This document shows, piece by piece, positions 6,105-30,380 of a DNA stretch of 32,000 nt (within the stretch, counting starts at the first letter, position 1; the number at the start of each line of letters is the position of its first letter). The translations under genes were made by a program, and so were the position numbers. Location: positions 1,020,001-1,052,000 of the forward strand of contig NC_008698.1 of the NCBI RefSeq assembly GCF_000015225.1, written 5' to 3'. The notes beneath the pieces were generated by a model. The model saw nothing but the letters and a program-made list of their open reading frames with translations, made no database searches and was not told where the DNA came from. The DNA is from Thermofilum pendens Hrk 5. GTDB lineage: Archaea; Thermoproteota; Thermoprotei; Thermofilales; Thermofilaceae.

Positions 6105-7382
6105 ATGCAGGGAGAAGACTTCGAAAGGGCTTTCAAGCAGCTCCGCGACAAGGGCGTAAAGTTCTTCGAGGTTGTATTCCAGGATCTCGGAGGAGTTCTA
6201 CGGGGCAGGGTTCTAAAGCCGGAGAAGCCCGACGACGTTGCGCGCGGCTTCAGGATAGACGCGTTCAGCACGGGTTTCAGCGGCGTCGAGGACTCCGACG
6301 CAACGTTGCTACCGGACCTCTCCACGCTGAGAGTATACGAGTCCTCGATAGGTAGGACAGGCTTCCTCATAGGGGACCTCTACCGCGGGGGCAAGCCCAT
6401 GGAGACGTACCCGAGGAACCTGCTGAAGAAGTGGGAGGCGGAGTCCAGGTACAAGGTCCTGCTGGGGGCGGAGCTCGAGTTCTACCTGGCGAGGGACTAC
6501 AAGCCAGTGGACAACGGCGGCTACATGTACGTCTCCCCCTACTCGACCGTGTACCCCGTGATCGCAGAGATAGTCACGAAAGCGGAGGAAGCGGGGCTAG
6601 CGCTGAAAGCCGCGCACCACGAGGTAGGCCCCGGGCAGTACGAGGTGTTACCGACGCCCATGAGCCCCCTAGCCCTCTCCGACGCCATAGTCTTCCTGAA
6701 GAAGCTCATATGGGAGGCTGCGAGCGCGAGAGGCCTCCAGGCCACCTTTATGCCTAAGCCCTTCAACGGTTTGCCGGGCAACGGGCTCCACGTGCACATC
6801 TCGGTGCACGACGGCGACAGGAACGTCCTCTTCGAGGACGGCGAGCTGACCGAGGAGGGCCGCTCCGTGATCGGAGGGCTACTGGCTTACACCGTCCCGC
6901 TTATACTGTTCACGAACCCCACTATTAACTCCTACAAGAGGCTCGTACCCGGCTTCGAAGCCCCGATCTACCTAACCTGGGGGAGGGGGAACAGGTCCAC
7001 GATGATCCGGGTCCCGATGGGGCTTAGAGGCGCCTCGGGCGTCGTGGAGTACAGGCTACCGGACTCCTCCGGGAACGTGTACCTGAAGGCCCTCGCGGTC
7101 CTATACTCGGCGGAGAGGGGGCTGAGGGAGAGGGTAGACCCCGGGCCGGAGTGCAGGGTTAACGCCTTCCTCGCAGACGGGTACCCGCGCATACCGGGGA
7201 CTCTCGGAGAAGCACTCGAGAAATCCCTGGAGTCTATCGGCAAGGCCCCGGAGCTAAGGGACCTGCTATCCAAGGTGGCCGAGCTCGAGAAAGGGGAGTG
7301 GCGCCGCTACTTGGAGGAGGCGGGCTCCCCAGAGGCCTCCGAAGTCACGGAGTGGGAGGTGAAGAGGTACTTCCTGGGCTGA
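6105..7382 (+). CDS. glnA: Glutamine synthetase (GlnA family, 425 aa)
   Basis: GS motifs seen by eye: GAELEFYL, HHEVGPGQYEV, ATFMPKPFNGLPGNGLHVHISV, NSYKRLVPGFEAP, GNRSTMIRVP, VEYRLPDSSGNVYL. Confidence 0.85.
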   Translation: MQGEDFERAFKQLRDKGVKFFEVVFQDLGGVLRGRVLKPEKPDDVARGFRIDAFSTGFSGVEDSDATLLPDLSTLRVYESSIGRTGFLIGDLYRGGKPMETYPRNLLKKWEAESRYKVLLGAELEFYLARDYKPVDNGGYMYVSPYSTVYPVIAEIVTKAEEAGLALKAAHHEVGPGQYEVLPTPMSPLALSDAIVFLKKLIWEAASARGLQATFMPKPFNGLPGNGLHVHISVHDGDRNVLFEDGELTEEGRSVIGGLLAYTVPLILFTNPTINSYKRLVPGFEAPIYLTWGRGNRSTMIRVPMGLRGASGVVEYRLPDSSGNVYLKALAVLYSAERGLRERVDPGPECRVNAFLADGYPRIPGTLGEALEKSLESIGKAPELRDLLSKVAELEKGEWRRYLEEAGSPEASEVTEWEVKRYFLG

Positions 7383-7424: not shown

Positions 7425-8168
7425 CTACAGGGGCTTGAGGGACTCGAAGTACTTTTCTAGGTAGCGTTTGTTCGCCTCGTCGCCTCCCGGCACGTTCGCG
7501 CTCATCCAGACCTCGGGCTTCACCCCCGCCGAGAGGAGTTTCTGCACAGTCCTGGCTACGAGTAGCTGGAGTATGAAGGAGCACACGATCGTAGACACGG
7601 GCGCCACTTTTTGCTCGCACCCCTCTATCTTGAGGATCGCGTCGCCCTCGGGGACCTTGTTGTCTATAACGACGTCGGCTACCTCGTAGAGCCTCTTCCC
7701 GAGGGGGTTGCTCGGAGGCACCTTCCTGCTGTACTCCACGGAGGTTATAGCTATGACCTTGACTCCCCTGTTCCTCGCCTCTACCGCCATCTCGACGGGA
7801 ACAGCGTTCTTCCCGGAGTTGCTCACAATTATCAGCGAGGAGTTCGGCTTTATAGGCGTGGAGTCGAGGAGCGCCTTCGCGTAGCCGGGCAACCTCTCCA
7901 TGTACGTGCTCTTAAGCGCGCCGTTAAAGCCGGAGACGCTTAGGTCGAGGAGGGGGTAGACGCGTACAAGCCCTCCAGCCCTGTAGAACACCTCCATGGC
8001 CATCAGCATGGAGTGCCCGGTCCCGAACACGTAGATGAAGCCGCCGCTCTTCAAGGTATGGGCGAGGACCTCGGAAGCCTTTTCGAGGTTGAGCTTTTCC
8101 TCCCGGAGAATCCTGTCGAATATGCCTACAACGCCCCTGTAAAACTCGGTGTAGACGTCCTGCACCAT
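7425..8168 (-). CDS. SIS-domain protein of the UPF0309 family (putative sugar-phosphate isomerase/binding protein)
   Basis: 247 aa. Matches my recollection of UPF0309 proteins: GTGHS...[34 protein letters not shown] at the C-terminus. Divergent from the HPr gene. Confidence 0.7.
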
Positions 8169-8195
8169 TCGGTACCAAGCCTACATAGTACGGGT

Positions 8196-8207
8196 AAAGA
8201 TATAAAC
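8196..8207. promoter_or_regulatory. Single central AT-rich TATA-like element in the 67-nt divergent SIS/HPr intergenic region
   Basis: AAAGATATAAAC. Its centre (~8203) is essentially the midpoint between ATG 8168 (minus strand) and ATG 8236 (plus strand). Confidence 0.4.
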
Positions 8208-8235
8208 GTTCGCATTGTACCGCGTCCGAGGGCTT

Positions 8236-8508
8236 ATGAAGACCCTGAAGGTGAAGGTTTCCAATAGGAGCGGTCTGCACGCGAGGCCCGCGGCGGTCTT
8301 CGTTCAGACAGCCAGGAAGTTCAAGTCTAGGATAACTGTGAGGAAGCTGGACAAGGCGGCGGACTCCAAGAACATCCTACAGCTGCTCGCGCTGGGAGTG
8401 GACATGGGCGACGAGATAGAAATTGTGGCGGAGGGCCCCGACGAGGAGGAGGCCATAGCCGAGCTGGGAAAACTGCTCACAGAGGTTCTACCGTCCATAG
8501 ACAAGTAA
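8236..8508 (+). CDS. ptsH: PTS phosphocarrier protein HPr
   Basis: 90 aa from ATG 8236. Active-site context SGLHARPAAVFVQTA with His at position 15. Alignable along its whole length to bacterial HPr. Confidence 0.9.
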   Translation: MKTLKVKVSNRSGLHARPAAVFVQTARKFKSRITVRKLDKAADSKNILQLLALGVDMGDEIEIVAEGPDEEEAIAELGKLLTEVLPSIDK

Positions 8509-8511
8509 GAG

Positions 8512-10251
8512 TTACTCGAAGACCCTAATGCCCCTTCTCTCCAGGTAGCTCCTAGCCCAAGCTCTAACCTCCCTGGACGTGCTCGCGGACTCTACGACCT
8601 CCCTAACCTCCCTCGAAGCCTCCTCGAGGTCTATCCTCCTCACTACGTACTTCACCCTCCCGACGAAGACGGGGGCTACGCTCAGCCCCTGCACCCCGAG
8701 CCCCAGTAGGGCTGGGACGGCGAGGGTTCTGCTAGCCATCTCCCCGCAGACCTCGACCTCCGCCCTCCCGCCCAGCTTGTCCACAGCGTAGGCTATCAGC
8801 CTGAGAACTGCGGGGTTAAGCTCGTCGTACACCTTGCCGACGTGCGCGCTCCCCCTGTCCGCCGCCAGGACGTACTGCGTCAAGTCGTTGGTTCCGAAGC
8901 TGACGAAGCTCAAACCCCCCTTCTCGACTAGCTCGCGGCTGAGAAGCGCGGCGGAGGGGACTTCTACCATCACGCCCAGCCTCGGGACCCTCGCTTCGAA
9001 GCCCTCGCTCCTCAGCTCCTCCTCGGCCCTCCTGACCTCCTCCGAGAGCTCCTCGACCTCCTCGACCGTCGAGACCATGGGGAACATGAGCCTCAAGTCG
9101 CCGTGGACAGCCGCCCTCAGCGCCGCCCTGAGCAGCGGCCTGAGCAGTTTATCCCTGTACTCGAGCAGTAGGCGCGTACCGCGGAGCCCCAGCTGGGGGT
9201 TCGCCTCCTTCGGGAGCTCCAGGAAGTTCACAGGCTTGTCGCCCCCTATATCGGGAGCCCTGACCGTGAGGGGCCTGCCGCCGAGCACCTCCAGACTCTT
9301 CTTGAACAGCCCGTAGAGCTCCTCCTCGCCCGGCGCCTCCTGACGCACCATGTACGCGAACTCTATCCTGAAGAGCCCTATACCGCCGCACCCGTAGCCC
9401 GGAGCGGCTCTGACCTCCTCGAGCCCCCCGGCGTTGCACAACACGTCGACGCGGCGGCCGTCCAGCGTTACGGGCTCGAGCCCCTCCTCCTTCGAGAACA
9501 GCGCTAGCATTCTGTTGTACTCCTCGGCCAACGCCCCGTAGCGTTCCTCCTCCTCGGCCGTCGGGTTGACGAGGAGAACGCCGTTCACGCAGTCCAGCAC
9601 CGCCTCGTCGCCGTCCCTGACGAGGCCAAGGTCGAGCTCTCCGGAGATCATGTAAGGCACTCCCTTGAGCCTCGCCAGTATGGATACGTGGGCCGTCAAC
9701 CCTCCTTTACGGGTCACGAGGCCCGCCAACCCCTCCTCGGCAGCTTCCAGGAACTGTATCGGGTCGAGCTCCTCCGCCACAGCGATCCTCCCGGAGTAGC
9801 CCCCGCCGGCCGTCTTCCCACCGGTCAAAACCGAGACGAGCCTGGACGCGAGGTCCCGGAGGTCCTGCACTCTGAGCGCGAAGAGCTCGCTACCGCTCTT
9901 CAGCATCTCGGCGTACTTCTCGTAGACGCTCTTCACCGCGTACTCGGCGGAGAGGGAAGAGGACTTCACGAGCTCCCCCGCCTCGGCTACGAGGGATTCC
10001 AGCATCAACAGCTGTGCGTCCACGATCTCGCGCTCCGCGGCCGGCAATACCCTCTTAAGCTCTTCCAGCCTCTCCCTAACGAGCGAGCCAGCCCGCGACA
10101 GCCTCTCGAGCTCCCCCTCGACATCGCCGACGCGCCTCTCCTCGACTAGCCCGAGCACGTCGACAGCGCGCACGACGAGTAGACGTCCTCTGGCAACCCC
10201 CTGAGAAACCACCTGGCCTCTAAACTTCAGGCTTTGAGGCACGCTAAACAA
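8512..10251 (-). CDS. ptsI: PTS Enzyme I (phosphoenolpyruvate-protein phosphotransferase)
   Basis: 579 aa. Phospho-His motif GGLTAHVSILARLKGVPY; PEP-binding motifs SFGTNDLTQY and VCGEMAS. The start is TTG 10251 or in-frame GTG 10242. Confidence 0.92.
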   Translation of the reverse strand: MFSVPQSLKFRGQVVSQGVARGRLLVVRAVDVLGLVEERRVGDVEGELERLSRAGSLVRERLEELKRVLPAAEREIVDAQLLMLESLVAEAGELVKSSSLSAEYAVKSVYEKYAEMLKSGSELFALRVQDLRDLASRLVSVLTGGKTAGGGYSGRIAVAEELDPIQFLEAAEEGLAGLVTRKGGLTAHVSILARLKGVPYMISGELDLGLVRDGDEAVLDCVNGVLLVNPTAEEEERYGALAEEYNRMLALFSKEEGLEPVTLDGRRVDVLCNAGGLEEVRAAPGYGCGGIGLFRIEFAYMVRQEAPGEEELYGLFKKSLEVLGGRPLTVRAPDIGGDKPVNFLELPKEANPQLGLRGTRLLLEYRDKLLRPLLRAALRAAVHGDLRLMFPMVSTVEEVEELSEEVRRAEEELRSEGFEARVPRLGVMVEVPSAALLSRELVEKGGLSFVSFGTNDLTQYVLAADRGSAHVGKVYDELNPAVLRLIAYAVDKLGGRAEVEVCGEMASRTLAVPALLGLGVQGLSVAPVFVGRVKYVVRRIDLEEASREVREVVESASTSREVRAWARSYLERRGIRVFE

Positions 10252-10263
10252 CTTCAGGACCCC

Positions 10264-10292
10264 TTATTTAAGCCTGTGCACACCTTTAAGTA
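10264..10292. promoter_or_regulatory. Divergent ptsI/nagA promoter core: two TATA-like TTTAAG elements flanking the palindrome TGTGCACA
   Basis: Arrangement TTTAAG-CC-TGTGCACA-CC-TTTAAG at 10267-10290. The right element lies 25-32 nt upstream of nagA GTG 10317. The left element read on the minus strand (CTTAAATAAGG) lies 13-24 nt upstream of the ptsI start. Confidence 0.4.
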
Positions 10293-10316
10293 GGAGTTCT
10301 CCGCAACATACCCCGG

Positions 10317-11483
10317 GTGGGGCTGTTGAGAGTACTCGTGAAGAACGCCCACGTTCTCACCCCTCTGGGCGACCTCGGGGTCGTCAACGTGATGGTGAAG
10401 GACGGCGTCGTCGAAGGCTTCGACGTCGAGGCTGTCCCCGATAGGGTCGTAGACGCGGAGCGCTACTACGTCGCGCCGGGCTTCATAGACACGCACATAC
10501 ACGGCTACGGAGGCGTAGACGTAACCGAAGCCAGCGCGGAGGAGATACTCGAAATGTCCGGCGGGCTCGCGGAGCACGGGGTCACGGGTTTCCTCGCATC
10601 GACGGTGGCGGCGCCCCACGAGAGACTCCTCCAGGCGTGTAGCAACGTCGCCGCGGCGAGCTCGCGGTGGAGCCCCTCAAAGGGGGCGAGGATCCTCGGA
10701 GTCCACCTTGAAGGTCCATACCTCAACCCGAAGATGAAGGGGGCTATGAACGAGCAGTACTTCCGCAAGCCTAGCCTAAGGGAGCTCGACGAGTACGTCT
10801 CGGCGTCGAGGGGCCTCGTGAGGCAGGTCACAGTAGCCCCCGAAGTCGAGGGTGCCTTGGAGTTCATAGAGGAGGCGAGCAGGAGGGGCATCACGGTGAG
10901 CGTAGGGCACACGGACGCCACGTACGAGCAGGCGCTCAGGGCGGTCGAGGCGGGAGCCCGGAAGGCGAACCACATCTTCAACCAGATGAGGGGCTTCCAC
11001 CACAGGGAGCCTGGCACCGCCATGGCGTTACTCCTAGATACGGACGTCTTCGTGGAGATGATAGTGGACTTCGTGCACCTACACCCGGCGACCGTGAGGC
11101 TTGTTTACCGCCTGGCGGGCCCCCTGAGGACAGTGCTCATAACTGACGCAGTGCGCGCGGCGGGGCTCCCCGACGGCGAGTACACCCTCGGGGGCTTGCG
11201 GATAGTGGTGAAGGAGGGGGTTTCCAGGCTGGCAGACTCGGGGGCTCTCGCCGGCTCGACGCTCACGATGGACAGGGCGGTCAGGAACATGACGAAGGTG
11301 GGTGCGAACACTCTCGAAGCCCTGACGATGGCGAGCTACACCCCGGCGAAAAGCGTAGGGGCTCTTGGAAGGGAGAGGGTCGGCCTGCTCAGACCCGGGT
11401 ACGCGGCGGACATGGTAGTCCTAGACGAGAGGCTAGAGGTTAAGAAAACGATTATAGCCGGAGAAGTCGTGTACGAGGCTTGA
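10317..11483 (+). CDS. nagA: N-acetylglucosamine-6-phosphate deacetylase (NagA/AgaA family amidohydrolase)
   Basis: 388 aa. Metal-binding motif GFIDTHIHGYGGVD, plus HLEGPY, VGHTDA and NHIFNQM, all typical of NagA. Confidence 0.88.
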   Translation: MGLLRVLVKNAHVLTPLGDLGVVNVMVKDGVVEGFDVEAVPDRVVDAERYYVAPGFIDTHIHGYGGVDVTEASAEEILEMSGGLAEHGVTGFLASTVAAPHERLLQACSNVAAASSRWSPSKGARILGVHLEGPYLNPKMKGAMNEQYFRKPSLRELDEYVSASRGLVRQVTVAPEVEGALEFIEEASRRGITVSVGHTDATYEQALRAVEAGARKANHIFNQMRGFHHREPGTAMALLLDTDVFVEMIVDFVHLHPATVRLVYRLAGPLRTVLITDAVRAAGLPDGEYTLGGLRIVVKEGVSRLADSGALAGSTLTMDRAVRNMTKVGANTLEALTMASYTPAKSVGALGRERVGLLRPGYAADMVVLDERLEVKKTIIAGEVVYEA

Positions 11484-11493
11484 GGCGAGGCGG

Positions 11494-13323
11494 ATGGGGG
11501 GCATATTCGGGGCCGTGTCTAGGAGCGGCGGGAACGTCGTCCCGCTCGTCGTGACAGGCCTCGAAAGGCTGAAGTACAGGGGCACCGACAACTCGGGAAT
11601 AGCCGTAGCCCGAGAAGGGCGCCTAGAGGTCTACAAGGACACAGGGCCCATAGACGTGGTAGCGCGCAAGCTAGGCCTCGACAAGCTCCAGGGTAGCGTA
11701 GCCCTCGGGCACACGCGCTACGCCACTCACGGTAGGCCTACAGCCGAGAACGCCCACCCCCACGTCGACTGCGGGAGACGCTTAGCGGTAGTCGGCGACG
11801 GCTCTATCTCGAACTACGAGGAGCTGAAGGACAAGGTGTTACTCAACGGGCACAGGCTAACGTCGAGGAGCGACTTCGAAGTCGTGGCCCACGTCCTGGA
11901 GGAAGCGTTCAGGGAGGGCCGCGCCCCCGAGGCTTTACCGGGAGTGCTCTCCGAGAAGCTGCAGGGCTTCTTCGCCGTAGCCTTCCTGGACGCATCCACG
12001 GGTAGCATCTACGCCGCGACGACGGGGCCGCAACTCTTCCTCGGCGCGTCCCGGGAACTCTTCCTCGTATCTACGAGCAAGTACGCTATGCACGGCTTCG
12101 CGGAGCGCTACAGGGAGGTGAGGAGGGGCGAGGTAGTCCGGGTCTCCAGCGAGGGAGTCGAGGTGTACACGGGCGCGGGGGTCGGGGGGCTCGGGGAACT
12201 ACAACCCTTGCATCTCGACCCCTCCCTTGTGGAGAAGAACGGCTACAAGCACCACATGCTCCGGGAGATATACGAGGTGCCCGAGTCCCTTATGAGGACC
12301 CTGAGCTCCGTGCAGAAGAAGTACCTCCAGCTCGCGGCAAGGCTCGTTACAGGCGCGGACAACGTCTACATAATCGCCAACGGTACGAGCCTGCATGCGG
12401 GGATGGTCGCTTCCTACTACTTCTCGGAGCTCGTAGGGGTAAACCCCGTAGTGGTCAGCGCGGCGGAGTTCCCGCTCTACTACCTCGAAAACATAGGCCC
12501 CGGCAGCCTGGTCCTAGCGATATCCCAGTCCGGCGAGACGGGGGACGTGCTCTCCTCCCTCTACGAGGCGAAGCTCCGCGGGGCGACGATACTGGGCATA
12601 ACGAACTACGTGGGCTCGCGGCTCGCCCGCCTCTCAAACCTCTACCTCCCGATAGCGGCCGGCCCCGAGCTAGCGGTTCCGGCGACGAAGACCTTTACCT
12701 CTACTCTGCTACTGCTGTACCTGGTGGCCCTCAGGGCGTCCAGGCAGGAGGGCAGGATAGACGAGGACACGCTTAACTCGAAGCTAGCCGCGGTAGCCGA
12801 GGCGGCGCGGCAACTCGGGGAGTGGCTACCCAAGGTTGACTCGGAGGCCTCCAAGGCGGCAAACGAGGTATCCGAGTGCAGGGGAGGCTACGTGGTGTCG
12901 AGGGGGCTTACCTACCCGCTCGCGCTCGAAGGGGCCTTGAAGCTGAAAGAAGCCTCCTACTTCCACGCCGAGGGGGTAGAGGCGGGCGAGTTCAAGCACG
13001 GTCCATTCGTACTCGTCGAGAAGGGCTTCGGCGTGGTATTCGTCGTACCTGTCGAGAAAGTCTCCGCCGAGGCTACCTACCCGCTAGTCGGGATGGCTCT
13101 GGAAGCCGGCGCCAAGGTCGTAGCGGTAGGCTTCGCCGGAGACCAGAGCCTGGAAGCCCTCTCGGAGAAAGGCGCCGCCGTCGTAGCCGCGCCGCCCGCG
13201 GAGAGGCACCTCGCGCCGATAGTCCTGGCGGTTCCCCTGCAGCTACTGGCCTACAGGCTGGGCGAGAGGCTTTCAAGACCAATCGATTCCCCGCGCTACC
13301 TGACGAAAGCCGTTACCCAGTGA
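11494..13323 (+). CDS. GlmS-like protein (Ntn glutaminase-like domain + two SIS domains) lacking the catalytic N-terminal Cys; candidate hexosamine-6-phosphate deaminase/isomerase
   Basis: 609 aa and colinear with GlmS. N-terminus is MGGIFG instead of MCGI(V/I)G. Isomerase-domain motifs are retained: SQSGETGD, GEFKHGP and a C-terminal LTKAVTQ. Confidence 0.85.
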   Translation: MGGIFGAVSRSGGNVVPLVVTGLERLKYRGTDNSGIAVAREGRLEVYKDTGPIDVVARKLGLDKLQGSVALGHTRYATHGRPTAENAHPHVDCGRRLAVVGDGSISNYEELKDKVLLNGHRLTSRSDFEVVAHVLEEAFREGRAPEALPGVLSEKLQGFFAVAFLDASTGSIYAATTGPQLFLGASRELFLVSTSKYAMHGFAERYREVRRGEVVRVSSEGVEVYTGAGVGGLGELQPLHLDPSLVEKNGYKHHMLREIYEVPESLMRTLSSVQKKYLQLAARLVTGADNVYIIANGTSLHAGMVASYYFSELVGVNPVVVSAAEFPLYYLENIGPGSLVLAISQSGETGDVLSSLYEAKLRGATILGITNYVGSRLARLSNLYLPIAAGPELAVPATKTFTSTLLLLYLVALRASRQEGRIDEDTLNSKLAAVAEAARQLGEWLPKVDSEASKAANEVSECRGGYVVSRGLTYPLALEGALKLKEASYFHAEGVEAGEFKHGPFVLVEKGFGVVFVVPVEKVSAEATYPLVGMALEAGAKVVAVGFAGDQSLEALSEKGAAVVAAPPAERHLAPIVLAVPLQLLAYRLGERLSRPIDSPRYLTKAVTQ

Positions 13324-13330
13324 CGCCGGA

Positions 13331-14578
13331 ATGGCGGCTATAGGGGTAGCCCTCGGAGCCGTACCCATAACCCCCTCCCCGCCCGCGGGCCACGAGCTCG
13401 CAGGCTACATAGCCAGGCAGGGGCGCTCGCTCGGAGCCCACGACGACGTCGAGGCTAGGTGCATGCTTATAGACTGGCAACCGGCAGTCCTGCTGGTAAA
13501 CCTAGACCTTCTCGGCGTCGACTCGGGGATAGTTGAAACCGTTCACAGGGTGGCGGAAAGGGAGGTCGGGGCGGTGGAGGTCGTTGTAAGCGCTACGCAC
13601 ACCCACTCCGCGCCAGCAACACTCTTCACAAACCCACTGCTGACGTTCGGGGGGAGTTTCCTGCGCCGAGACTACCTGGCATACTTCGAAGAGAGGCTCA
13701 GAATCCTTTTTCAGGACCTCGCGGGGAGGGTTGAGCGGCACGATGTACTCGTAGGGAAGGGATCCGTGAGCGGCGTGGTTACGGACAGGGAGGATCCAGG
13801 CAGAAAGGTGGACGACGAGGCACTGGTAGTCGTGTTTAAAAGGGGGCTCCAGACGGCTGGGTACCTGCTTAACTACGCGGTACACCCCACGGTTCTGGGC
13901 CCCGACAACCTGCTGATCTCGAAGGACCTCGTAGACCCCGTCCTCAGGTACCTGGGCGCGGCGTGGAAAGCGGGGGTAGGCTTGTTCCTGAATGGCGCGG
14001 CTGCAAACGTGTCTACCAGGTTTACGAGAAGGGGGCAAACATTCGAGGAAGCAGAAAGGCTCGGAAAGCTACTCGTGGACCAACTCCTCCTGTTACCTCT
14101 TAGAGGCATGCCCGGGGATGCCGCAGAGGTGGATTTACAAGCCAAAAGGGTCAGTGTGTCCTTTAGGCAACCGTCGCCGGAGGAACTGTCAGCAGCGTTA
14201 CGCGTGGGTGCAGGGTCGGCGCACCCCAGGGTGAGGGAAGCTATCCTCGAAGGCGTGAAAGCGCTGGAGAGGATAACCCCCTACCTATCCTCCGCTGGGC
14301 GCAGCGAGGTCGAGCTACGTGTTCTCAGGATAGGGTCCTTGAGGCTTCTCTTCGCGCCCTTCGAGCTCCACTCCGACTTCTCTCTACGACTGAAGCGGTT
14401 TGCCGGATCCGGTAAGCTGGGGCTCGTAGGCTACTCGGGGGAGTATCTAGGCTACCTCGTCCCAAGGGACTACGCGCTCGGCTATGAGTCTGTCATGCAG
14501 GTTCTCGACGAGGAGAGCTCGGAGAGGGTTTTAAGGGGGTTAGAGGAGGTGTTAGACTTCGATCCACTTCCCGCTTGA
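13331..14578 (+). CDS. Neutral/alkaline ceramidase-like N-terminal-domain hydrolase (putative amidohydrolase), cytoplasmic
   Basis: The pattern G-x-ITP...AGY...G(A)HDD(V)EARC(M)LI...NLDLL...SATHTHSAP resembles the ceramidase-family N-terminal domain. No signal peptide. Third gene of the nagA operon, with a 7-nt spacer. Confidence 0.5.
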   Translation: MAAIGVALGAVPITPSPPAGHELAGYIARQGRSLGAHDDVEARCMLIDWQPAVLLVNLDLLGVDSGIVETVHRVAEREVGAVEVVVSATHTHSAPATLFTNPLLTFGGSFLRRDYLAYFEERLRILFQDLAGRVERHDVLVGKGSVSGVVTDREDPGRKVDDEALVVVFKRGLQTAGYLLNYAVHPTVLGPDNLLISKDLVDPVLRYLGAAWKAGVGLFLNGAAANVSTRFTRRGQTFEEAERLGKLLVDQLLLLPLRGMPGDAAEVDLQAKRVSVSFRQPSPEELSAALRVGAGSAHPRVREAILEGVKALERITPYLSSAGRSEVELRVLRIGSLRLLFAPFELHSDFSLRLKRFAGSGKLGLVGYSGEYLGYLVPRDYALGYESVMQVLDEESSERVLRGLEEVLDFDPLPA

Positions 14579-15664
14579 ACTAGACTCGTAGACGGCGTCG
14601 AGAAGTTTTTGGCTCCGGACACCGTCACTAATTGTCGGGTGGTAGTCTTCCCTCAGCCCCGAGAGGTACTCGAAGAAAGTCTTGTAGAGTATCACGTAGG
14701 AGAACACCCAGCCCTCGAAACTCTTGGGTAGAGGCCAGGCAAGGTCGCCGTAGATCTCCTCGTAGCCCTTAACTATTTTCTCTGTCCTCCCTGTTTCGCG
14801 CCGGTAGAGGTGGAGGACGTGGGGCTCGCTTAGCGAGAACCTCGCACCACCCCTATCCCCGTAAACCTCTACCCTCATTTGCTCCTCGAAGCCCGGCGAT
14901 ACTTTCGAAGCCTCTACTGAGCCCACAGCCCCAGCCTCGTACTCCAGTACTGCGAAGCCAATATCCTCTGTATCAACCCTCCTCTTCAACCCCGTAGCGG
15001 GGTCTACCCTCTCGCCGACAAGCGTGTAAACCTTGCCGAAAACCCTCCTAACCCTCCCCCCAGTCACGTACTCAGACAAGTCGAGTACGTGCACACCTAT
15101 ATCCGCGAAAACCCCTCCACCAGCCACGCTCCTATCCATCCTCCACTCAAACGGTGTATCCTTGTAGGCATGCTTCGCGTGCGCTATAACCCCCCTGAAC
15201 TCCAAGAAGTCGCCAAGCTCTCCCCGCACGACAAGATCCCTCAAAACCTGTATCCCCGGTGTAAACCGGGATACAAGGCAAACAGCGACACTCCTACCAA
15301 CCCTCCTCGAGTATCTCTCAATCTCCTCGGCTTCCCGAGCATTAAAAGCGACAGGCTTCTCGAGCACAACGTTAAACCCCCTCTCGAGTGCCCTCAAAGC
15401 GTAGGGGTAGTGCGTGTTGTTAGGAGAAGCTATACCGACAACGTCCAAATCCTCCCCGAAGAACTCCGACTCACTCGTAGTCCACTTCTCGAAGCCATAC
15501 TGCCTAGCAAGAGCCTCCGCGTGAGCAGGAGTCCTGCTAAACACAACCCTCAACTCAACCTCGGGGAAGCCGCTCCTCCTCACAACCCTCCCAAGACTAG
15601 ACAAGGAGAATGCCTGAGCAGAAGCCGACCACCCAGAGCCTATAAGCCCAACCCTTATCCTCAT
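14552..15664 (-). CDS. Gfo/Idh/MocA-family NAD(P)-dependent oxidoreductase
   Basis: N-terminal Rossmann motif RVGLIGSGW and a conserved EKP motif (VVLEKPVA). ATG 15664 is preferred because GGTG lies 8-11 nt upstream, just after the IIB stop. Confidence 0.8.
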   Translation of the reverse strand: MRIRVGLIGSGWSASAQAFSLSSLGRVVRRSGFPEVELRVVFSRTPAHAEALARQYGFEKWTTSESEFFGEDLDVVGIASPNNTHYPYALRALERGFNVVLEKPVAFNAREAEEIERYSRRVGRSVAVCLVSRFTPGIQVLRDLVVRGELGDFLEFRGVIAHAKHAYKDTPFEWRMDRSVAGGGVFADIGVHVLDLSEYVTGGRVRRVFGKVYTLVGERVDPATGLKRRVDTEDIGFAVLEYEAGAVGSVEASKVSPGFEEQMRVEVYGDRGGARFSLSEPHVLHLYRRETGRTEKIVKGYEEIYGDLAWPLPKSFEGWVFSYVILYKTFFEYLSGLREDYHPTISDGVRSQKLLDAVYESSSSGKWIEV

Positions 15665-15673
15665 TAAGCACAC

Positions 15674-16177
15674 CTAGAATTTCAGTTTTCTAAGCTTCTC
15701 CTCGAGGTCGACGGGTTTCGGCGGGAAGTCTGGGAGCTGCTGGTAGTAGACCTTTATGCCCATGTCGAGGAGTCTTAGTAGCGCTTTGTGCTCCTCCGGT
15801 CCCACGTCGAACGTCTTCTCTACTTTGACGCGCCCAGCCCTGTAGCCCATCTGCCCCGCCAGTATCCAGTCCACCTTTACGCCGGACTTTTCGATGAAGG
15901 CTAGCACGTCGATCGGGTTTTCGAAGAGCATTAAAACCCTGGTGTTATTCCCTACGTTCCTCGCCTTGGCGGCGGCCTCCTCTACCTTTAAAACCTCCAC
16001 GGAGATGCCTGGAGGCGCCAGCATTATTTGCAACTGCTTCAAGGCTGGGTTTCCCGCTATTTTATCGTTGACAACCCATATGGCGTTTGCCTCGAACTTC
16101 TTCGTCCACGCGGCCGTTACCTGCCCGTGGATAAACCTGTCATCTATACGGATAAAGATGTTCTGCTTTTTCTCCAT
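15674..16177 (-). CDS. PTS mannose/fructose/sorbose-family IIB component
   Basis: Signature IRIDDRFIHGQVTAAWTK contains the phospho-His. ATG 16177 is preceded by GGTGGGTGAT. The ORF-track TTG 16192 is the alternative start. Confidence 0.88.
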   Translation of the reverse strand: MEKKQNIFIRIDDRFIHGQVTAAWTKKFEANAIWVVNDKIAGNPALKQLQIMLAPPGISVEVLKVEEAAAKARNVGNNTRVLMLFENPIDVLAFIEKSGVKVDWILAGQMGYRAGRVKVEKTFDVGPEEHKALLRLLDMGIKVYYQQLPDFPPKPVDLEEKLRKLKF

Positions 16178-16218
16178 ATCACCCACCTGCAAGCTTTTTG
16201 GATAACGGTCACCTCTTT

Positions 16219-16659
16219 CTAAAAATCTTTTCCGGAGGGACCCTCTTCCTTTTTACCCGTTAACTCCCGGAGCCCTGGACCTACGAATGCCCTTACACCC
16301 TCCATGCCTGCGCTTTTTGCTCCAAGAACGAGCGACTCCAGGTCTTCGTCCTGGGAGGATAGGAGCTGTATAACCATTGCCATGTTGAAGCCTGTAATCA
16401 CCGCTTTCACCTTGGATTCCTGTAGGAGCATGAGTGCCGCCTTGCTTGGTGTCCCCCCGAAGAGGTCCGCTAAGACTATAGTGTCCCCGTCAACCCTGCT
16501 CGCAAGCTTCTCGTAGTAGTTTTCGAAGCTTTCACCTTCCAGGAGCTCGACGCAGTCGGTGACTTCTTTCACGGAGACCCCTAGGATCATCGCGACTGCC
16601 TCCCGCATGGCACAGCCTAGCCCTCCGTGCGAGGCAAACACTACTCTCAAGGCTCTCAC
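16219..16659 (-). CDS. PTS mannose-family IIA component
   Basis: 146 aa with N-terminal VVFASHGGLG (phospho-His context of EIIA-Man). GTG start in a GTGA overlap with the upstream gene's stop. Confidence 0.85.
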   Translation of the reverse strand: MRALRVVFASHGGLGCAMREAVAMILGVSVKEVTDCVELLEGESFENYYEKLASRVDGDTIVLADLFGGTPSKAALMLLQESKVKAVITGFNMAMVIQLLSSQDEDLESLVLGAKSAGMEGVRAFVGPGLRELTGKKEEGPSGKDF

Positions 16660-17540
16660 CTCAAGTGGGACATCGCGACACGCCTATATGTGTGTCTAAC
16701 ACCCCTCACCGCTACCGATAGTTCGAGTATGTTCTCAGGCACGGCGACGCCCATCCTGTACCCGGAGTCTCCTATGTGGTGTATGTCGCAACCGCATGCC
16801 TTCGAGGCCAACCCTATCTTCCTGATTACGGAGCTACTCGAGCCTTCCTGGGAAGTGCCGATCGCGCACATGAGGAGAGCGTCGTACTTGTAGACCAGCC
16901 GCGCCACGGCGCTTACTCTTTCCGGGAGAGACCCGGGGACGGTGTAAGGGGCAGGCACGACTACGCCGTCGGCGCCCGCCGCTAGCACGTCCTCTATCAG
17001 TTTCAGGTCGTAGATGTCCTCGCCGCGAATCCCCCCGCTGTGCATCTTACCCCCGAACACCAGTGCTCTCTCGCCGACTATGCGCTTCGAAGCTTCGACC
17101 CCCTCCCTGATCCTGGACCACGTTACGCCGAGACCGGGGTTACCAGTCACCACTATGAGTCTAGAACCCTGCTCGATGCTCTTTTCGATGCTTCGCGGCG
17201 ACAGCCTCCTCCCCTCGGGTATAACGCCCGGATCCACGGGTTCAAGGTTATTTCCAACGAATCTCTGCAGGAACTCGGAGAGATCCGAGATGCTCGCGTA
17301 CTCCTCCGGCACCCCCTCTACCCTGGGGTTAAAAACGTCGTACATGTTCAACAGGACCATGTCCGCCCCGAAGGACGCCGCTAGCTCTACGTTGGAGACT
17401 CCATCCACGAGTGGAGGAGACTGGACGACGACTTCCGCGCAGATAGTCCTACCCTCGGAGCTTACGACGGAAGACTTGAAGTCTTTAGCTGAAATCTTTG
17501 CAAGCTCCCTACCACTCAGATCTAATACTCTTTTCGCCAT
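16656..17540 (-). CDS. Uncharacterised protein leading the IIA-IIB-oxidoreductase operon; possibly a phosphate-binding (beta/alpha)-barrel enzyme
   Basis: 295 aa from ATG 17540. The longer ORF to 17681 would run through the divergent promoter and the IIC-IID start. Gly-rich FGGKMHSGGIRGE and IGTSQEG resemble phosphate-binding loops. No family recognised with confidence. Confidence 0.6.
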   Translation of the reverse strand: MAKRVLDLSGRELAKISAKDFKSSVVSSEGRTICAEVVVQSPPLVDGVSNVELAASFGADMVLLNMYDVFNPRVEGVPEEYASISDLSEFLQRFVGNNLEPVDPGVIPEGRRLSPRSIEKSIEQGSRLIVVTGNPGLGVTWSRIREGVEASKRIVGERALVFGGKMHSGGIRGEDIYDLKLIEDVLAAGADGVVVPAPYTVPGSLPERVSAVARLVYKYDALLMCAIGTSQEGSSSSVIRKIGLASKACGCDIHHIGDSGYRMGVAVPENILELSVAVRGVRHTYRRVAMSHLR

Positions 17541-17597
17541 TCCGGGTGAACCTGAAACTAAGCCCACCGAATTAAGTTTTCGTCGTAAAGCACAATC

Positions 17598-17628
17598 TTT
17601 ATAAATAGGTTGGTAAAAGCCTATTTGT
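17598..17628. promoter_or_regulatory. TATA box TTTATAAA plus overlapping inverted repeat ATAAATAGG-N10-CCTATTTGT abutting the IIC-IID start codon
   Basis: TATA at 17598-17605 is 24-31 nt upstream of ATG 17629. Inverted-repeat arms are at 17601-17609 and 17620-17628 (7/7 core, 8/9 extended). Confidence 0.45.
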
Positions 17629-19233
17629 ATGGCGACCATAGGCCCACTCGAGGTAGGGCTTCTAGGACTGCTAGCCTTCATCTTCGGACTGGACTACATC
17701 TGGGTAACACCTCTCGGAATCTGGCGCCCCGTGGTCGCGGGGACCCTCACAGGCATTATTCTAGGAGACCCCTTGACAGGGCTACTCGTAGGCTCGCTAC
17801 TAGAGTTCGTGTTCGCTGGGCTATTCACGATAGGAGGCGGGACCGTTCCGGAGGCTGCTAGCGGGACGATAGCCTCCGTGGTTGTCGCCGTTACTACGGG
17901 GTTAAAGCCTGAGGCGGCGGTACCGCTGGCTATACCCGTAGCAGTGCTTACAATGAACTTGGAGATAGTTGTCAGGTCTTTCGACGCGGTGTTCACGCAC
18001 TGGGCTGACAGGGAGATAGAGAGGGGGAACTACGGGGCAATCCCCCTGATAAACATTCTCGGCGCGGTACCATGGGGGCTCAGCAGGGCAATACCTATCT
18101 GGCTATTCGCGGGAGCCTTAGCCATAAACCCACAGGCCGTTAAAGCGGCGATAGATGCCCTCCAAGTGGTTCAAATCGGACCCTTCACGGTGCGCTTCTG
18201 GGACGCGATGGCAGTCGCGGGCGCCGTACTCCCAGCGCTCGGTGCCGCCATTCTAATGAAACTCATGATCTCGCGTAGGAACGTGATGTTCTTTGTACTC
18301 GGCTTCGCTCTCGCAGCCTACCTGAAGCTAAGCCTCCTGGCGATAGCCCTCGTAGCGGGATCCATAATCTTCGCTATCTACTACTTCACCCACCGCGAGG
18401 CATTGGAGGCTGGAGCCGCGGTAACCACAGCGGCACCACCCACCGGCAAGGCAACGACGAAGGACTTCATAAGGTGGTTCGGGGTCTCATGGTTCATACA
18501 GTCGTCCTGGAACTACGAGAGAATGATGGGGACAGGCTTCGCGCACGGTATGCTTGAAATAGAGAAGAAGCTTAGAAAGGACCCGGAGGAGCTGAAGTCC
18601 TGGATGAGGCTACACAACGAGTTCTACAACACCGAGCCCCACCTCCACAACGCCATTTACGGGATGGTGATATCCCTAGAGGAACAGGGGGCGGATCAGG
18701 ATACGATAAGAGGAGTCAAAACAGCGCTTATGGGTCCATTCGCAGGGCTCGGAGACTCGATAATGTGGTTCACGATCCTCCCGATAGCGTTCCTCTTAGG
18801 AGCCTCGCTGGGAGCCCAGGGCAACATACTCGGCCCGGTAATAGCGCTACTGATATGGATACCAGTCTCCTGGGCCGTTAAGTACTACACGCTCGTCTAC
18901 GGGTACAAGTACGGCTTATCCCTGGCGGAAATACTCAAGGGAGAAGTCCTGAAGATATTTAGGGAGGGTATAGCAGCCTTCGCGATGGCAATGGTCGGAG
19001 GAATCGCGGCGACATACGTCAGGGCGACAACCCCGATAGTACTGGCCCAGTACGCTGGTCACGCCATTAAGCTACAACCAGTACTGGACCAGTTGATGCC
19101 ATCCCTGCTCCCACTGCTCTTCACCCTCTACGCCTACTGGCTAATAAAGGTCAAAGGCTACAGCTACGGTAAAGCCGTCGTCATACTCTTCCTCACGGCA
19201 TTCATACTCGCACTGCTAGGAGTACTCGGTTAA
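17629..19233 (+). CDS. PTS mannose-family IIC-IID fusion permease
   Basis: 534 aa. The N-terminal half is a IIC-like polytopic domain. An Ala/Thr/Pro linker spans 18391-18468. The C-terminal half carries IID motifs (FIQSSWNYERMMGTGFAHGM, LHNEFYNTEPHL). Confidence 0.88.
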   Translation: MATIGPLEVGLLGLLAFIFGLDYIWVTPLGIWRPVVAGTLTGIILGDPLTGLLVGSLLEFVFAGLFTIGGGTVPEAASGTIASVVVAVTTGLKPEAAVPLAIPVAVLTMNLEIVVRSFDAVFTHWADREIERGNYGAIPLINILGAVPWGLSRAIPIWLFAGALAINPQAVKAAIDALQVVQIGPFTVRFWDAMAVAGAVLPALGAAILMKLMISRRNVMFFVLGFALAAYLKLSLLAIALVAGSIIFAIYYFTHREALEAGAAVTTAAPPTGKATTKDFIRWFGVSWFIQSSWNYERMMGTGFAHGMLEIEKKLRKDPEELKSWMRLHNEFYNTEPHLHNAIYGMVISLEEQGADQDTIRGVKTALMGPFAGLGDSIMWFTILPIAFLLGASLGAQGNILGPVIALLIWIPVSWAVKYYTLVYGYKYGLSLAEILKGEVLKIFREGIAAFAMAMVGGIAATYVRATTPIVLAQYAGHAIKLQPVLDQLMPSLLPLLFTLYAYWLIKVKGYSYGKAVVILFLTAFILALLGVLG

Positions 19234-19248
19234 AACAATTTTAATTCC

Positions 19249-19255
19249 TTTTTTT
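19249..19255 (+). terminator. Oligo-T terminator candidate after the IIC-IID gene
   Basis: T7 run 16 nt downstream of the stop at 19233. Confidence 0.45.
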
Positions 19256-19292
19256 GTAAACGTTATTTACGCTAAGGTTGCCACTGAAAGAC

Positions 19293-19979
19293 TCAGCTAT
19301 AGCTCATACGGTTAACTATCTCCTCGATTACTCTTACCACGCAGTCCCCGTACTTCTCTTCGCAAACTATGTCCGCTTTCTCCTTGACTTCTCGCGCGGC
19401 GTTCCCAACGGCCACCTTGACCTTCGACTTTTGGAAGAGCGGTAGGTCCGTGCGGCTATCTCCGATGCTTACTATCATGGCGTCGCTCCACCCAGTCAGC
19501 TTGAGAAGCCTCTCGAGACCCACACCCTTATCGATGCCCCTAGGCATGAACGCATACGTCCGCGAGCCGACCTTCGCGAGGTCGTACCCGAAGGCTCCCA
19601 GCTTCTCCCTAGCAACTCTCTCCGCTACCTGGAGTTCCTCCTCGTCGACGTAGTACAGCACTCTCCCCTCGTTTACAGCCGGTACGCTTTCCCTGAGTAC
19701 TGCCCGGAGCCTATCCCACCCCCACGGCTTGAATATAACCTCCAATGCTTCGGGCAACGCTACGACTGAGCCCACCTCCAGTATGAGCGCGTCTACGAGC
19801 CAGAGCTTACCCACGAACCTCGATATGTCCTCCAGGGGTCGCGCCGTCGCTATAACGAACTTGAAGGGGTACTTTGCTTTGAGCTCTTCGAGCTTCTCCA
19901 AGACGCGGGGCTCCACCTCTCTGTTCTCCTCGGCCAGCGTACCGTCGTAGTCGGACACCACGATCCACTCGCCGCTCAT
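19293..19979 (-). CDS. HAD-superfamily (IIB/Cof-like) phosphatase, probable sugar-phosphate phosphatase
   Basis: Motif I VSDYDGTL and motif IV GDSRTD. Size and cap region fit HAD-IIB. ATG 19979 is adjacent to GTG 19982. Confidence 0.8.
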   Translation of the reverse strand: MSGEWIVVSDYDGTLAEENREVEPRVLEKLEELKAKYPFKFVIATARPLEDISRFVGKLWLVDALILEVGSVVALPEALEVIFKPWGWDRLRAVLRESVPAVNEGRVLYYVDEEELQVAERVAREKLGAFGYDLAKVGSRTYAFMPRGIDKGVGLERLLKLTGWSDAMIVSIGDSRTDLPLFQKSKVKVAVGNAAREVKEKADIVCEEKYGDCVVRVIEEIVNRMSYS

Positions 19980-20002
19980 CACGTATGCTACGCGTGGAAC
20001 AG

Positions 20003-20021: not shown

Positions 20022-20774
20022 CTACGGCTGGGTGGAGCCTTGGGATGCTAGCTCTAGGATAACCATTGTCTGGATGTCCCGCGTTAACACGGATTTCCAG
20101 GCTTCGCTGAGCGATACCAGGGCCAGGACCCCTACGGGCTCGGCGTCCGCCTCGTCTATGAGGCTTAAGAGAGCCTTCAAGGTTCTACCGGTTCGCAACA
20201 GGTCGTCGACTATCAGAACCCTAGCCCCCCTCTCTAGCAGGCTCGAAGGCACGTACAGGGGGACTACGCTCGGCGGGTCGCGCTGGAACAGGTAGGCAGT
20301 TAGGTACTTCATCGAGGGGCTCTCCCTCTCCCTCCTCGCGACTGCAAGCCTGGCGTCGAGCGCCCACGCGGCGAAGGACGCTAGGGGTATCCCGTTCACG
20401 GCGGCTGTAAGCACCACGTCTACGCCCCTGAAGAACGTGGGGTAGGCGCTCGCAACAGCCGCCGAGAGGACTTCTACGTCGTACGCCAGCTGTGCAACGT
20501 TCACTACGCCGTTCTCGTCCATGGATATCTTCTTCGAGAGGATCTCGCGAAGCAACCCCCTCCTCTTAAGCGCGACGAGGATATGCACAGCCTTTAGGCT
20601 CGGGGGAAGGGAGTGCCCAGCCGCGTACCTGGATAGCTCTGACGGCGATACCTCTACCTTCTCCTCCCTCAAAGCCCTGTAGACCTCCTGTAAGGGTACG
20701 TACGACTTCAGGCTTCTCAGAACCCTCGATGCGAGTATCCTCGGAACCTCCGCCTCGCTCCTAGAGATGGGCAT
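20022..20774 (-). CDS. PurR-like protein: N-terminal winged-helix-like domain + type I phosphoribosyltransferase domain (putative PRPP/nucleotide-responsive regulator)
   Basis: PRTase motif ARVLIVDDLLRTGRTLKAL in the C-terminal half, with a ~90-aa N-terminal domain. ATG 20774 sits 20-29 nt downstream of TTATATATAA. The ORF-track extension to 20897 crosses both promoters. Confidence 0.65.
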   Translation of the reverse strand: MPISRSEAEVPRILASRVLRSLKSYVPLQEVYRALREEKVEVSPSELSRYAAGHSLPPSLKAVHILVALKRRGLLREILSKKISMDENGVVNVAQLAYDVEVLSAAVASAYPTFFRGVDVVLTAAVNGIPLASFAAWALDARLAVARRERESPSMKYLTAYLFQRDPPSVVPLYVPSSLLERGARVLIVDDLLRTGRTLKALLSLIDEADAEPVGVLALVSLSEAWKSVLTRDIQTMVILELASQGSTQP

Positions 20775-21647: not shown

Positions 21648-21650
21648 GGG

Positions 21651-30302: not shown

Positions 30303-30380
30303 AGGGGTCTTGGTTGTTGAAAGATTTTTCGATATATTAGCTTTGCCGACGCGCAAAGGCGGTAAACGGCTTACCACGCG

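Follow-up and report, generated by a model that had tools for sequence, protein, structure and literature searches.

In a 32,000-nucleotide stretch of the Thermofilum pendens Hrk 5 genome (NC_008698.1, positions 1,020,001 to 1,052,000; hereafter the window, from whose first letter coordinates are counted), we identified a gene island at 7425-19982 that encodes a complete mannose-family phosphotransferase system (PTS) in a crenarchaeon, with all phosphorylation motifs intact (Table 1). It represents a variant of the PTS-linked amino-sugar pathways of the aga, gnb and nag type. On balance we lean towards reading it as a working phosphoenolpyruvate (PEP)-dependent transport system with an N-acyl- or N-acetyl-hexosamine (HexNAc) as cargo, coupled to a GlmS-like deaminase and to accessory enzymes that would trim the imported sugar. 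The cargo would be N-acetylglucosamine (GlcNAc), one of its close epimers, a substituted derivative or a small glycoside of it.

Domains were assigned to the open reading frames (ORFs) of the island through Pfam and NCBIfam profile searches, and motifs were read from the translations. Twelve ORFs carry the domains named in a first-pass annotation of the same DNA, whose interleaved gene list was reproduced, with the DYDGT motif of the HAD phosphatase also present. Each PTS component and active-site motif that it had claimed was likewise recovered, namely GLHARPA in HPr, GGLTAH and CGEM in Enzyme I (EI), ASHG in IIA and IDDRFIHGQ in IIB. The phospho-acceptor histidines of IIA-Man and IIB-Man, the presence of both IIC and IID, and the EI and HPr active sites place the system in the mannose family (TC 4.A.6). 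Both membrane components reside in a single 534-aa protein (hereafter IICD), and Aga/galactosamine models were the top-scoring NCBIfam matches for IIA (AgaF, 1e-15), IIC and IID, all under their cut-offs. The island proteins are exact sequence matches to the T. pendens Hrk 5 entries ABL78489-ABL78499; the genome is therefore archaeal, as had been proposed, and a bacterial or contaminant contig is ruled out.

The presence of a PTS in T. pendens is said to go back to the 2008 genome paper. Later genome papers name this organism among the few archaea with a PTS, and since its presence was already published it is not new here. What this analysis adds is the archaeal breadth of the gene core described below, a clade of GlmS proteins in which the first cysteine is replaced by glycine (C1G), the association of DUF7916 with PTS genes, and the pattern in which NagA and the GlmS-like gene are linked to the core.

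An N-acetylhexosamine cargo is favored because of four lines of gene context: a NagA equivalog, the C1G GlmS-like protein, the company that bacterial DUF7916 genes keep with NagE, NagA and NagB, and the linkage seen in the metagenome locus L115. NagA scores above the equivalog cut-off, its translation shows the HxH, HLEGP and other metal motifs, and it provides the HexNAc-6-phosphate deacetylase of a nag/aga-type cluster. The neighboring GlmS-like protein has the full-length GlmS architecture and begins MGGIFGAV (ATG GGG GGC in the DNA, with codon GGG at 11497-11499). Alignment with Escherichia coli GlmS revealed the replacements Cys1 to Gly and Asn98 to Asp alongside conservation of the isomerase residues SQSGET, K485, E488, H504 and K603; the isomerase catalytic residues are thus retained and the Cys1 nucleophile of the N-terminal Ntn glutaminase domain is missing. 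Both replacements recur in the ortholog from Infirmifilum lucidum (67% identity) and in a metagenome ortholog. In an exhaustive HMMER search against 1.84 billion representatives (50%-cluster), the top-ranked full-length matches all carried glycine at Cys1 (P0318, P0320, P0321, P0323, named Caldivirga sp., and P0324), with canonical MCGI GlmS proteins starting at about rank 8. We therefore regard the T. pendens protein as a member of a glutaminase-dead GlmS paralog clade.

A GlmS protein without Cys1 cannot use glutamine. Given the loss of this nucleophile and the intact isomerase site, a deaminase role is plausible, and the GlmS-like protein is most likely an enzyme that converts glucosamine-6-phosphate (GlcN-6-P) into fructose-6-phosphate and ammonia rather than a synthase. 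This lends support to the deamination to a ketose-6-phosphate suggested in the first-pass annotation. The synthase annotation of the C1G proteins is accordingly one that we consider probably wrong, and a housekeeping synthase role for the island protein was rejected on the absence of Cys1. Unlike the SIS-only deaminases GlmD and NagB-II, which are without the N-terminal domain, the T. pendens protein retains it. Also, the C1G protein P0321 and the canonical MCGI protein P0326 were found on equal-sized contigs of 126,051 bp, as were the C1G protein P0318 and a homolog of the island amidase, P0229, on contigs of 87,723 bp, which hints at co-residence in each case.

The protein left unassigned in the first-pass annotation belongs to DUF7916 (PF25509). 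Its ORF extends to 17681, although the family is matched well by the annotated start at 17540, which gives 294 aa. The AlphaFold2 model (pLDDT 94.7) has eight beta/alpha units, and its Foldseek matches in the PDB are generic barrels at TM ~0.5 (pyruvate kinase, pyruvate carboxylase CT, class I/II aldolases and PEP mutase); no sequence relative was found in the PDB. Most of the invariant polar residues are found where the strands end on the C-terminal side, and loops rich in glycine come after strands 7 and 8, a layout that would be expected of a phosphate-binding barrel enzyme. Three more specific assignments were considered and not adopted. A relationship with the ManNAc-6-P 2-epimerase NanE was signaled weakly by profile comparison (hhalign probability 84.8%, E 6.5e-6 over 125 columns; hmmsearch against PDB NanE chains, E 0.025), and NanE was not among the best 50 Foldseek matches; for a clan GH-A glycosidase the NxEP motif is on strand 3 rather than strand 4; and for a class II aldolase the structural matches were the same generic barrels.

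Gene context was more informative as to the role of DUF7916. More than 700 homologs were recovered at E <= 1e-5 in a word-limited search, including gut Bacillota, and in Bacillota the gene is repeatedly the last of PTS operons, e.g. antiterminator-EIIA-HPr-EI-EIICB-DUF7916 in Brevibacillus and antiterminator-EIIC-EIIB-EIIA-DUF7916 in Symbiobacterium. The gene adjoins a PTS permease in many independent loci of bacteria. A survey of gene contexts across 72 metagenome loci yielded the orders EIIA-EIICB-NagA-NagB-DUF7916 (L037) and NagA-GntR/UTRA-EIICB-DUF7916, with a NagR-like regulator (L044 and L055), as well as Man-type IIB-IIC-IID-HAD(Cof)-DUF7916 in gut bacteria (L078, L082 and L110). All eight complete Glc-family EIICBs adjoining DUF7916 scored above the GlcNAc-specific TIGR01998 cut-off and are of the NagE type, and the same model was the best match of a ninth, IIC-only neighbor. 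From this context we conclude that DUF7916 probably acts on the product of a PTS, most often in a GlcNAc setting.

To place the island in a wider evolutionary setting, the T. pendens IICD protein was used in a scan of species-representative genomes and, further, 5.8 billion proteins were searched; the lineages of metagenome-assembled genomes (MAGs) given here are database labels, for which a check of flanking genes was weakly diagnostic of archaeal origin. In the genome scan, IICD identity to the T. pendens protein was 86-87% for Thermofilum and Infirmifilum, 73% for a Desulfurococcales MAG, 56-58% for Njordarchaeota, 58% for Promethearchaeati, 57% for Nitrososphaerota and 52% for Bathyarchaeia, with bacterial matches at 30-36%. 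In the protein search, the archaeal-type IICD clade stood at 56% or above, followed by one outlier at 42% and all others at or below 35%. No close bacterial donor for archaeal IICD is visible in either search. With IICD relatives across several archaeal lineages, this type of PTS is less rare in Archaea than the first-pass annotation had assumed.

A six-gene core recurs in MAGs labeled Thermofilaceae, Desulfurococcales, Njordarchaeia, Promethearchaeati and Nitrososphaerota, comprising fused IICD, DUF7916, IIA, IIB, a Gfo/Idh/MocA dehydrogenase and a HAD-IIB phosphatase. A short Bathyarchaeia contig carries four of the six; there IIC and IID are predicted as two ORFs, and the contig end cuts DUF7916 short. 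NagA and the GlmS-like gene adjoin this core in Thermofilaceae only. The I. lucidum island is fully syntenic (PRT-HAD-IICD-DUF7916-IIA-IIB-Gfo-amidase-GlmSlike-NagA-EI-HPr, where PRT denotes a phosphoribosyltransferase-domain protein), and protein identities for close Infirmifilum relatives are 45-85%; since this is another genus, such conservation argues for purifying selection. Linkage of the transporter to NagA and the deaminase candidate is kept in I. lucidum, is partly kept in an Infirmifilum sp. and is also found in L115, the 8-kb contig of the 42% IICD outlier, which reads EI-HPr-NagA-SIS_2-amidase-IIA-IICD-IIB with identities to T. pendens of 65% for SIS_2, 51% for NagA, 50% for HPr, 45% for EI, 42% for IICD and 35% for the amidase. 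L115 thereby ties NagA, SIS_2 and the amidase to a Man-type EII with EI and HPr in an independent arrangement. The Desulfurococcales contig holds the core, EI, HPr and the amidase, the last adjoining IICD. Taken together, the T. pendens island has the look of two units brought together, an amino-sugar module (EI, HPr, NagA, SIS_2, amidase and the GlmS-like gene) and a widely shared archaeal core.

Core versions from Njordarchaeia and Nitrososphaerota also contain a conserved ORF of about 135 aa beside the Gfo gene (L006:6529-6939, L008:3579-3980, L009:13448-13891 and L023/L024:12683-13084) that has no Pfam or NCBIfam match and is absent from the T. pendens window. Further, one Infirmifilum MAG carries a three-gene insert between the amidase and Gfo genes (L004:3544-6662), consisting of a DAO-type FAD oxidoreductase, a Pyr_redox_2 protein and DUF1667, which resembles an anaerobic glycerol-3-phosphate dehydrogenase set.

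As the first-pass annotation had remarked, a nag or aga regulon would not account for every enzyme of the island; besides DUF7916 the exceptions are the SIS_2 protein, the amidase, the Gfo dehydrogenase and the HAD phosphatase. The SIS_2 (UPF0309) protein shares family and aligned essential residues with Streptomyces NagS (SCO4393), a GlcNAc-6-P dehydratase: it is 38% identical to the Streptomyces coelicolor protein (PDB 9eol, 6e-47) and keeps H53, R64, E94, D179 and N228, with S91 replaced by threonine. It is counted in favor of the amino-sugar reading because the NagS catalytic residues (PMC12680351) are kept, and the occurrence of relatives downstream of a fucosidase and Man-PTS genes in Amphibacillus and Enterococcus was counted likewise. 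These loci (L013:7713-12437 and L016:7710-12309) comprise a GH29 alpha-L-fucosidase, IIAB, IIC, IID and SIS_2, adjoin a fucose isomerase and an FGGY kinase, and resemble a PTS locus for a fucosyl-amino sugar; the sole enzyme without an assignment there is the UPF0309 protein. True NagS orthologs are found in Streptomycetaceae with at least ~59% (58.7%) identity and dmdR1 synteny (PMC12680351). The T. pendens protein lies far under that identity and in a different neighborhood without dmdR1, and its identification as a true NagS was rejected on these grounds and on the inactivity of distant homologs in the same study.

The AlphaFold2 model of the 415-aa amidase (pLDDT 95) had neutral ceramidases as its sole significant Foldseek PDB matches (4wgk, 2zxc and 2zws; TMq 0.76-0.78, E ~1e-23). 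The family has the invariant residues H90, T91, H92, R153, H185, E345 and Y375, all of which except T91 we infer to map onto the ceramidase zinc site. It has the catalytic-domain fold and the invariant His/His/Arg/His/Glu/Tyr set in common with these enzymes, whereas ceramidases are proteins of 630-670 aa with a C-terminal domain that the amidase lacks (TMt ~0.5). Its genomic surroundings belong to sugar metabolism: the gene adjoins NagA and the GlmS-like gene in T. pendens, and in the bacterial locus L116 a homolog stands beside a Gfo enzyme, an RpiR/SIS regulator and a TonB receptor. Its substrate is probably an N-acyl sugar and not ceramide, with an N-acyl-sugar amidase as the likeliest role. 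The Gfo dehydrogenase lies beside IIB in every archaeal locus compared; its top named relatives include levoglucosan dehydrogenase (NF052479 1e-48, PDB 6a3f 4.5e-37), scyllo-inositol/L-glucose dehydrogenase and the C-glycoside 3-dehydrogenase DgpA, all NCBIfam scores being below cut-off. The HAD-IIB phosphatase is kept with the core in archaeal loci, and a Cof-type HAD also stands between Man-IID and DUF7916 in the gut-bacterial loci mentioned above.

From these components a pathway can be proposed. Phosphate would pass from PEP to His188 of EI, on to HPr, to the histidine of the IIA ASHG motif and to that of the IIB IDDRFIHGQ motif, with the fused IIC-IID importing the sugar. The predicted product is a HexNAc-6-phosphate, which NagA would deacetylate to GlcN-6-P and the GlmS-like protein would convert to fructose-6-phosphate and ammonia. 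With low confidence, DUF7916, Gfo, SIS_2 and the amidase might trim or convert non-standard forms into GlcNAc-6-P, candidates for which include an epimer, a 3-O-substituted sugar, a sugar with another N-acyl group or a disaccharide. Equally tentatively, the HAD-IIB phosphatase might release a dephosphorylated product or serve as a safety valve against sugar-phosphate build-up.

Several observations weigh against an amino-sugar cargo. Neither NagA nor the GlmS-like gene was seen beside the core in the available DNA of Desulfurococcales, Njordarchaeia, Promethearchaeati, Nitrososphaerota and Bathyarchaeia, so that the core could handle another sugar. Homologs of the UPF0309 family 26-36% identical to NagS were inactive on GlcNAc-6-P (PMC12680351), for which reason the substrate of SIS_2 is probably another sugar phosphate. 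The nearest characterized relatives of the Gfo enzyme use neutral sugars or cyclitols. Lac/Cel-family PTS genes also precede DUF7916, as in the IIC-IIB-IIA-DUF7916 order of L103, and many gut-bacterial DUF7916 loci have no PTS neighbor, which makes the link frequent rather than universal. The island holds neither a canonical NagB (PF01182) nor a SIS-only AgaS-type protein, we infer the direction of the GlmS-like reaction from its residues, and no biochemical, growth or other experimental work on the substrate of the T. pendens PTS was found in the literature.

A rival reading is a core that imports a neutral sugar or glycoside, e.g. a beta-galactoside or glucoside, next to which NagA, SIS_2, the amidase and the GlmS-like protein would form a separate amino-sugar unit in Thermofilaceae. 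Such an arrangement, which we judge unlikely, gains from the five lineages whose core stands without NagA and GlmS, from the levoglucosan-, inositol- and C-glycoside-oxidizing relatives of Gfo, and from the cellobiose-type PTS that precedes DUF7916 in L103, L052 and L054. It also gains from a beta-galactoside/Leloir-type cluster at 26553-31397, 7-11 kb downstream of the island, in which a GH1 beta-glycosidase accompanies an MFS permease and a galactose-1-P uridylyltransferase (GalT); a similar neighborhood is described for T. adornatum, where a paper on that organism groups the PTS transporter with a GH1 gene and a galactokinase. It has to contend, however, with the direct joining of NagA, SIS_2 and the amidase to IIA-IICD-IIB in L115, with the amidase adjoining IICD in Desulfurococcales as well, with the NagE-type permeases beside DUF7916 in 8/8 complete cases together with NagA and NagB, and with Aga-type models as the top matches of IIA, IIC and IID. 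The first-pass annotation had named, as grounds for abandoning N-acetylhexosamine uptake and phosphorylation, closest characterized homologs of IIC-IID and the flanking enzymes that act on a non-amino sugar, together with a separation of NagA and the GlmS-like gene from the system in related genomes. Such a separation was found in part, with linkage in Thermofilaceae and none seen in the five other lineages, and its proposal stands as the best available reading, supported circumstantially by NagA, the C1G GlmS-like protein, the DUF7916 context and L115, with the bare cores of those lineages counting against it.

The amino sugar might alternatively be salvaged rather than catabolized, with GlcNAc passing through GlcN-6-P to UDP-GlcNAc for glycoproteins and the GlmS-like protein synthesizing from free ammonia; we consider this improbable, to about the same degree as a neutral-sugar cargo. 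T. pendens, a biosynthetically reduced organism, is described in the literature as having many transporters and glycosyltransferases. GlcN-6-P is a product of NagA and of GlmS-type enzymes alike, the two genes are adjacent and co-oriented, a glutamine synthetase lies directly upstream, and the equal-sized contigs of P0321 (C1G) and P0326 (MCGI) suggest that both types can coexist with different roles. Yet without the glutamine nucleophile the driving step of synthesis is lost, and deamination is then thermodynamically favored as we understand it. Likewise, the SIS-only relatives NagB-II, AgaS and GlmD are named deaminases in NCBIfam, and the extra dehydrogenase, amidase and phosphatase better suit degradation. 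A PTS that is mainly regulatory or vestigial and transports no sugar is very improbable: although the 10 kb around the core revealed neither EI nor HPr in Njordarchaeia and Nitrososphaerota, the T. pendens catalytic motifs are all intact, gene order and sequence are conserved across genera, and adjacent EI and HPr genes occur in T. pendens, I. lucidum, the Desulfurococcales contig and L115. Extending the amino-sugar reading, one might regard the six-gene core as a distinct archaeal PTS pathway without a close bacterial donor, spread over Thermoproteota, Asgard archaea, Nitrososphaerota and partly Bathyarchaeia, with DUF7916 as a new PTS-coupled HexNAc-phosphate enzyme and the C1G GlmS clade, which keeps a degenerate glutaminase domain, as an unrecognized class of GlcN-6-P deaminase; this is a doubtful proposition, which we advance tentatively.

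Mannose-family PTSs of known amino-sugar specificity include E. coli aga, for N-acetylgalactosamine and galactosamine, and Lacticaseibacillus casei gnb, with the AgaA/GnbF deacetylase and the AgaS/GnbE SIS deaminase. Like these, the island joins Man-family IIA, IIB, IIC and IID to a NagA-type deacetylase and a SIS-type deaminase candidate. It differs in its archaeal host, its sub-cut-off Aga scores and its fused IIC-IID, in having as deaminase candidate a full-length GlmS whose glutaminase domain is dead instead of a SIS-only AgaS, in the absence of a tagatose-6-P kinase or aldolase, and in its extra DUF7916, Gfo, ceramidase-fold amidase, UPF0309 and HAD proteins. The bacterial nag system (NagE/NagP, NagA, NagB and NagR) shares NagA with the island, and bacterial DUF7916 co-occurs with NagE-type EIICB, NagA, NagB and GntR/UTRA; nag transport is of the Glc family, in contrast to the Man family of T. 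pendens, and the archaeal island lacks NagB and a GntR regulator. The characterized archaeal PTS, the fructose system of Haloferax volcanii and Haloarcula, is PEP-dependent, as proposed here for T. pendens, and also has separate EI and HPr, but has fructose-family IIA, IIB and IIC only, yields fructose-1-P and is regulated by GfcR/GlpR, whereas the T. pendens system is of the mannose family with IID and has a different enzyme set. The unusual parts of the island are thus the fused IIC-IID, the glutaminase-dead GlmS in place of NagB/AgaS, DUF7916, Gfo, the ceramidase-fold amidase, UPF0309 and HAD.

Table 1. Positions of the island genes, intergenic promoter regions and selected neighbors within the window.
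Feature	Position	Strand	Evidence
SIS_2/UPF0309 sugar-phosphate protein, MurQ/NagS relative	7425..8168	-	PF13580 1.4e-47; NF002805 5e-93
Divergent promoter region SIS_2/HPr	8169..8235	.	A/T-rich TATA-like box AAAGATATAAA ~30 nt before ATG 8236
HPr phosphocarrier	ORF 8215..8508, probable start ATG 8236	+	PF00381 1.4e-30; GLHARPA active-site histidine
Enzyme I (PEP-protein phosphotransferase)	8512..10251	-	TIGR01417 2e-116, above cut-off; GGLTAH (His188), CGEM (Cys502)
Divergent promoter region EI/NagA	10252..10316	.	Two TATA-like boxes, CTTATTTAAG and CCTTTAAGTA
NagA, N-acetylhexosamine-6-phosphate deacetylase	10317..11483	+	TIGR00221 1.3e-90, 304 bits vs cut-off 226
GlmS-like protein	11494..13323	+	Profile match 7e-144; TIGR01135 above cut-off
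Zn-amidase, neutral-ceramidase catalytic fold	13331..14578	+	PF04734 1.6e-9, N-terminal match, model positions 12-106
Gfo/Idh/MocA NAD(P)-dependent sugar dehydrogenase	14552..15673	-	Three Pfam domains
PTS IIB, mannose family	15674..16192	-	PF03830 7e-39; IDDRFIHGQ
PTS IIA, mannose family	16219..16659	-	PF03610 3e-14; ASHG
DUF7916 TIM-barrel protein	16656..17540	-	PF25509 1.8e-105, model positions 1-296 of 296
Divergent promoter region DUF7916/IICD	17541..17628	.	CTTTATAAATAGG ~25 nt before ATG 17629
Fused IIC-IID permease, mannose family	17629..19233	+	PF03609 (EII-Sor) 1e-55; PF03613 (EIID-AGA) 5e-82
HAD-IIB (Cof/SPP-type) phosphatase	19293..19982	-	PF08282 5e-29; DYDGT
PRT-domain protein	20022..20774	-	PF00156 3e-14; NF006328 6.6e-47 (below cut-off); PurR_Bsub 7e-15
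MFS permease	26553-27833
GH1 beta-glycosidase	27833-29386		PDB 7f1n beta-galactosidase, 1e-190
Galactose-1-P uridylyltransferase (GalT)	30381-31397	-	PDB 6k5z, 9e-87

Gene orientation defines the three divergent intergenic regions listed in Table 1 and about seven transcription units, namely SIS_2, HPr, EI, NagA-GlmSlike-amidase, Gfo-IIB-IIA-DUF7916, IICD and (PRT)-HAD. The three divergent promoters of the first-pass annotation were accordingly retained and its count of four transcription units was not. No 7-mer is common to three or more of the divergent regions that could represent a shared operator, and neither a tRNA (ARAGORN) nor an Rfam element was detected in the region. A lead on regulation comes from the PRT protein, which is encoded upstream of HAD and co-oriented with it, a position kept in Infirmifilum, and which might be a PurR/GfcR-style regulator, its membership of the island being uncertain. 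It has an N-terminal extension of about 110 aa and resembles PRK08558 and the PRT domain of PurR; assignment as a GfcR-type regulator was not adopted, given a weak match to the GfcR-like PRK02277 (7e-9) and no helix-turn-helix domain detected in the protein. Divergent from the PRT gene lie the plus-strand genes of an energy-coupling factor (ECF)-type transporter (20859-24091), consisting of a family-less 262-aa protein, an EcfT/CbiQ-like T component and a fused double EcfA ATPase, which are syntenic in Infirmifilum. Directly upstream of the island, at 6105-7382 on the plus strand, is the glutamine-synthetase-family gene, whose N-terminal domain is under the Pfam cut-off and which could be tied to ammonia from hexosamine deamination or be there by coincidence.

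PTS transport is usually viewed as a bacterial trait with few archaeal exceptions. That MAGs of several archaeal phyla, the Asgard archaea among them, share one conserved mannose-type module revises the view of how common PEP-driven sugar uptake is in Archaea. Testable functions likewise follow from the island for three poorly understood groups of proteins, namely DUF7916, the Cys-less "GlmS" proteins now annotated as synthases, and the short ceramidase-fold amidases in sugar loci. With the PTS itself already published, the archaeal breadth of the core, the probably mis-annotated GlmS clade and the link between DUF7916 and PTS genes are worthwhile and testable leads. T. pendens relies heavily on imported nutrients, and for this organism the island points to amino sugars from the glycans of neighboring cells as a source of carbon and nitrogen.

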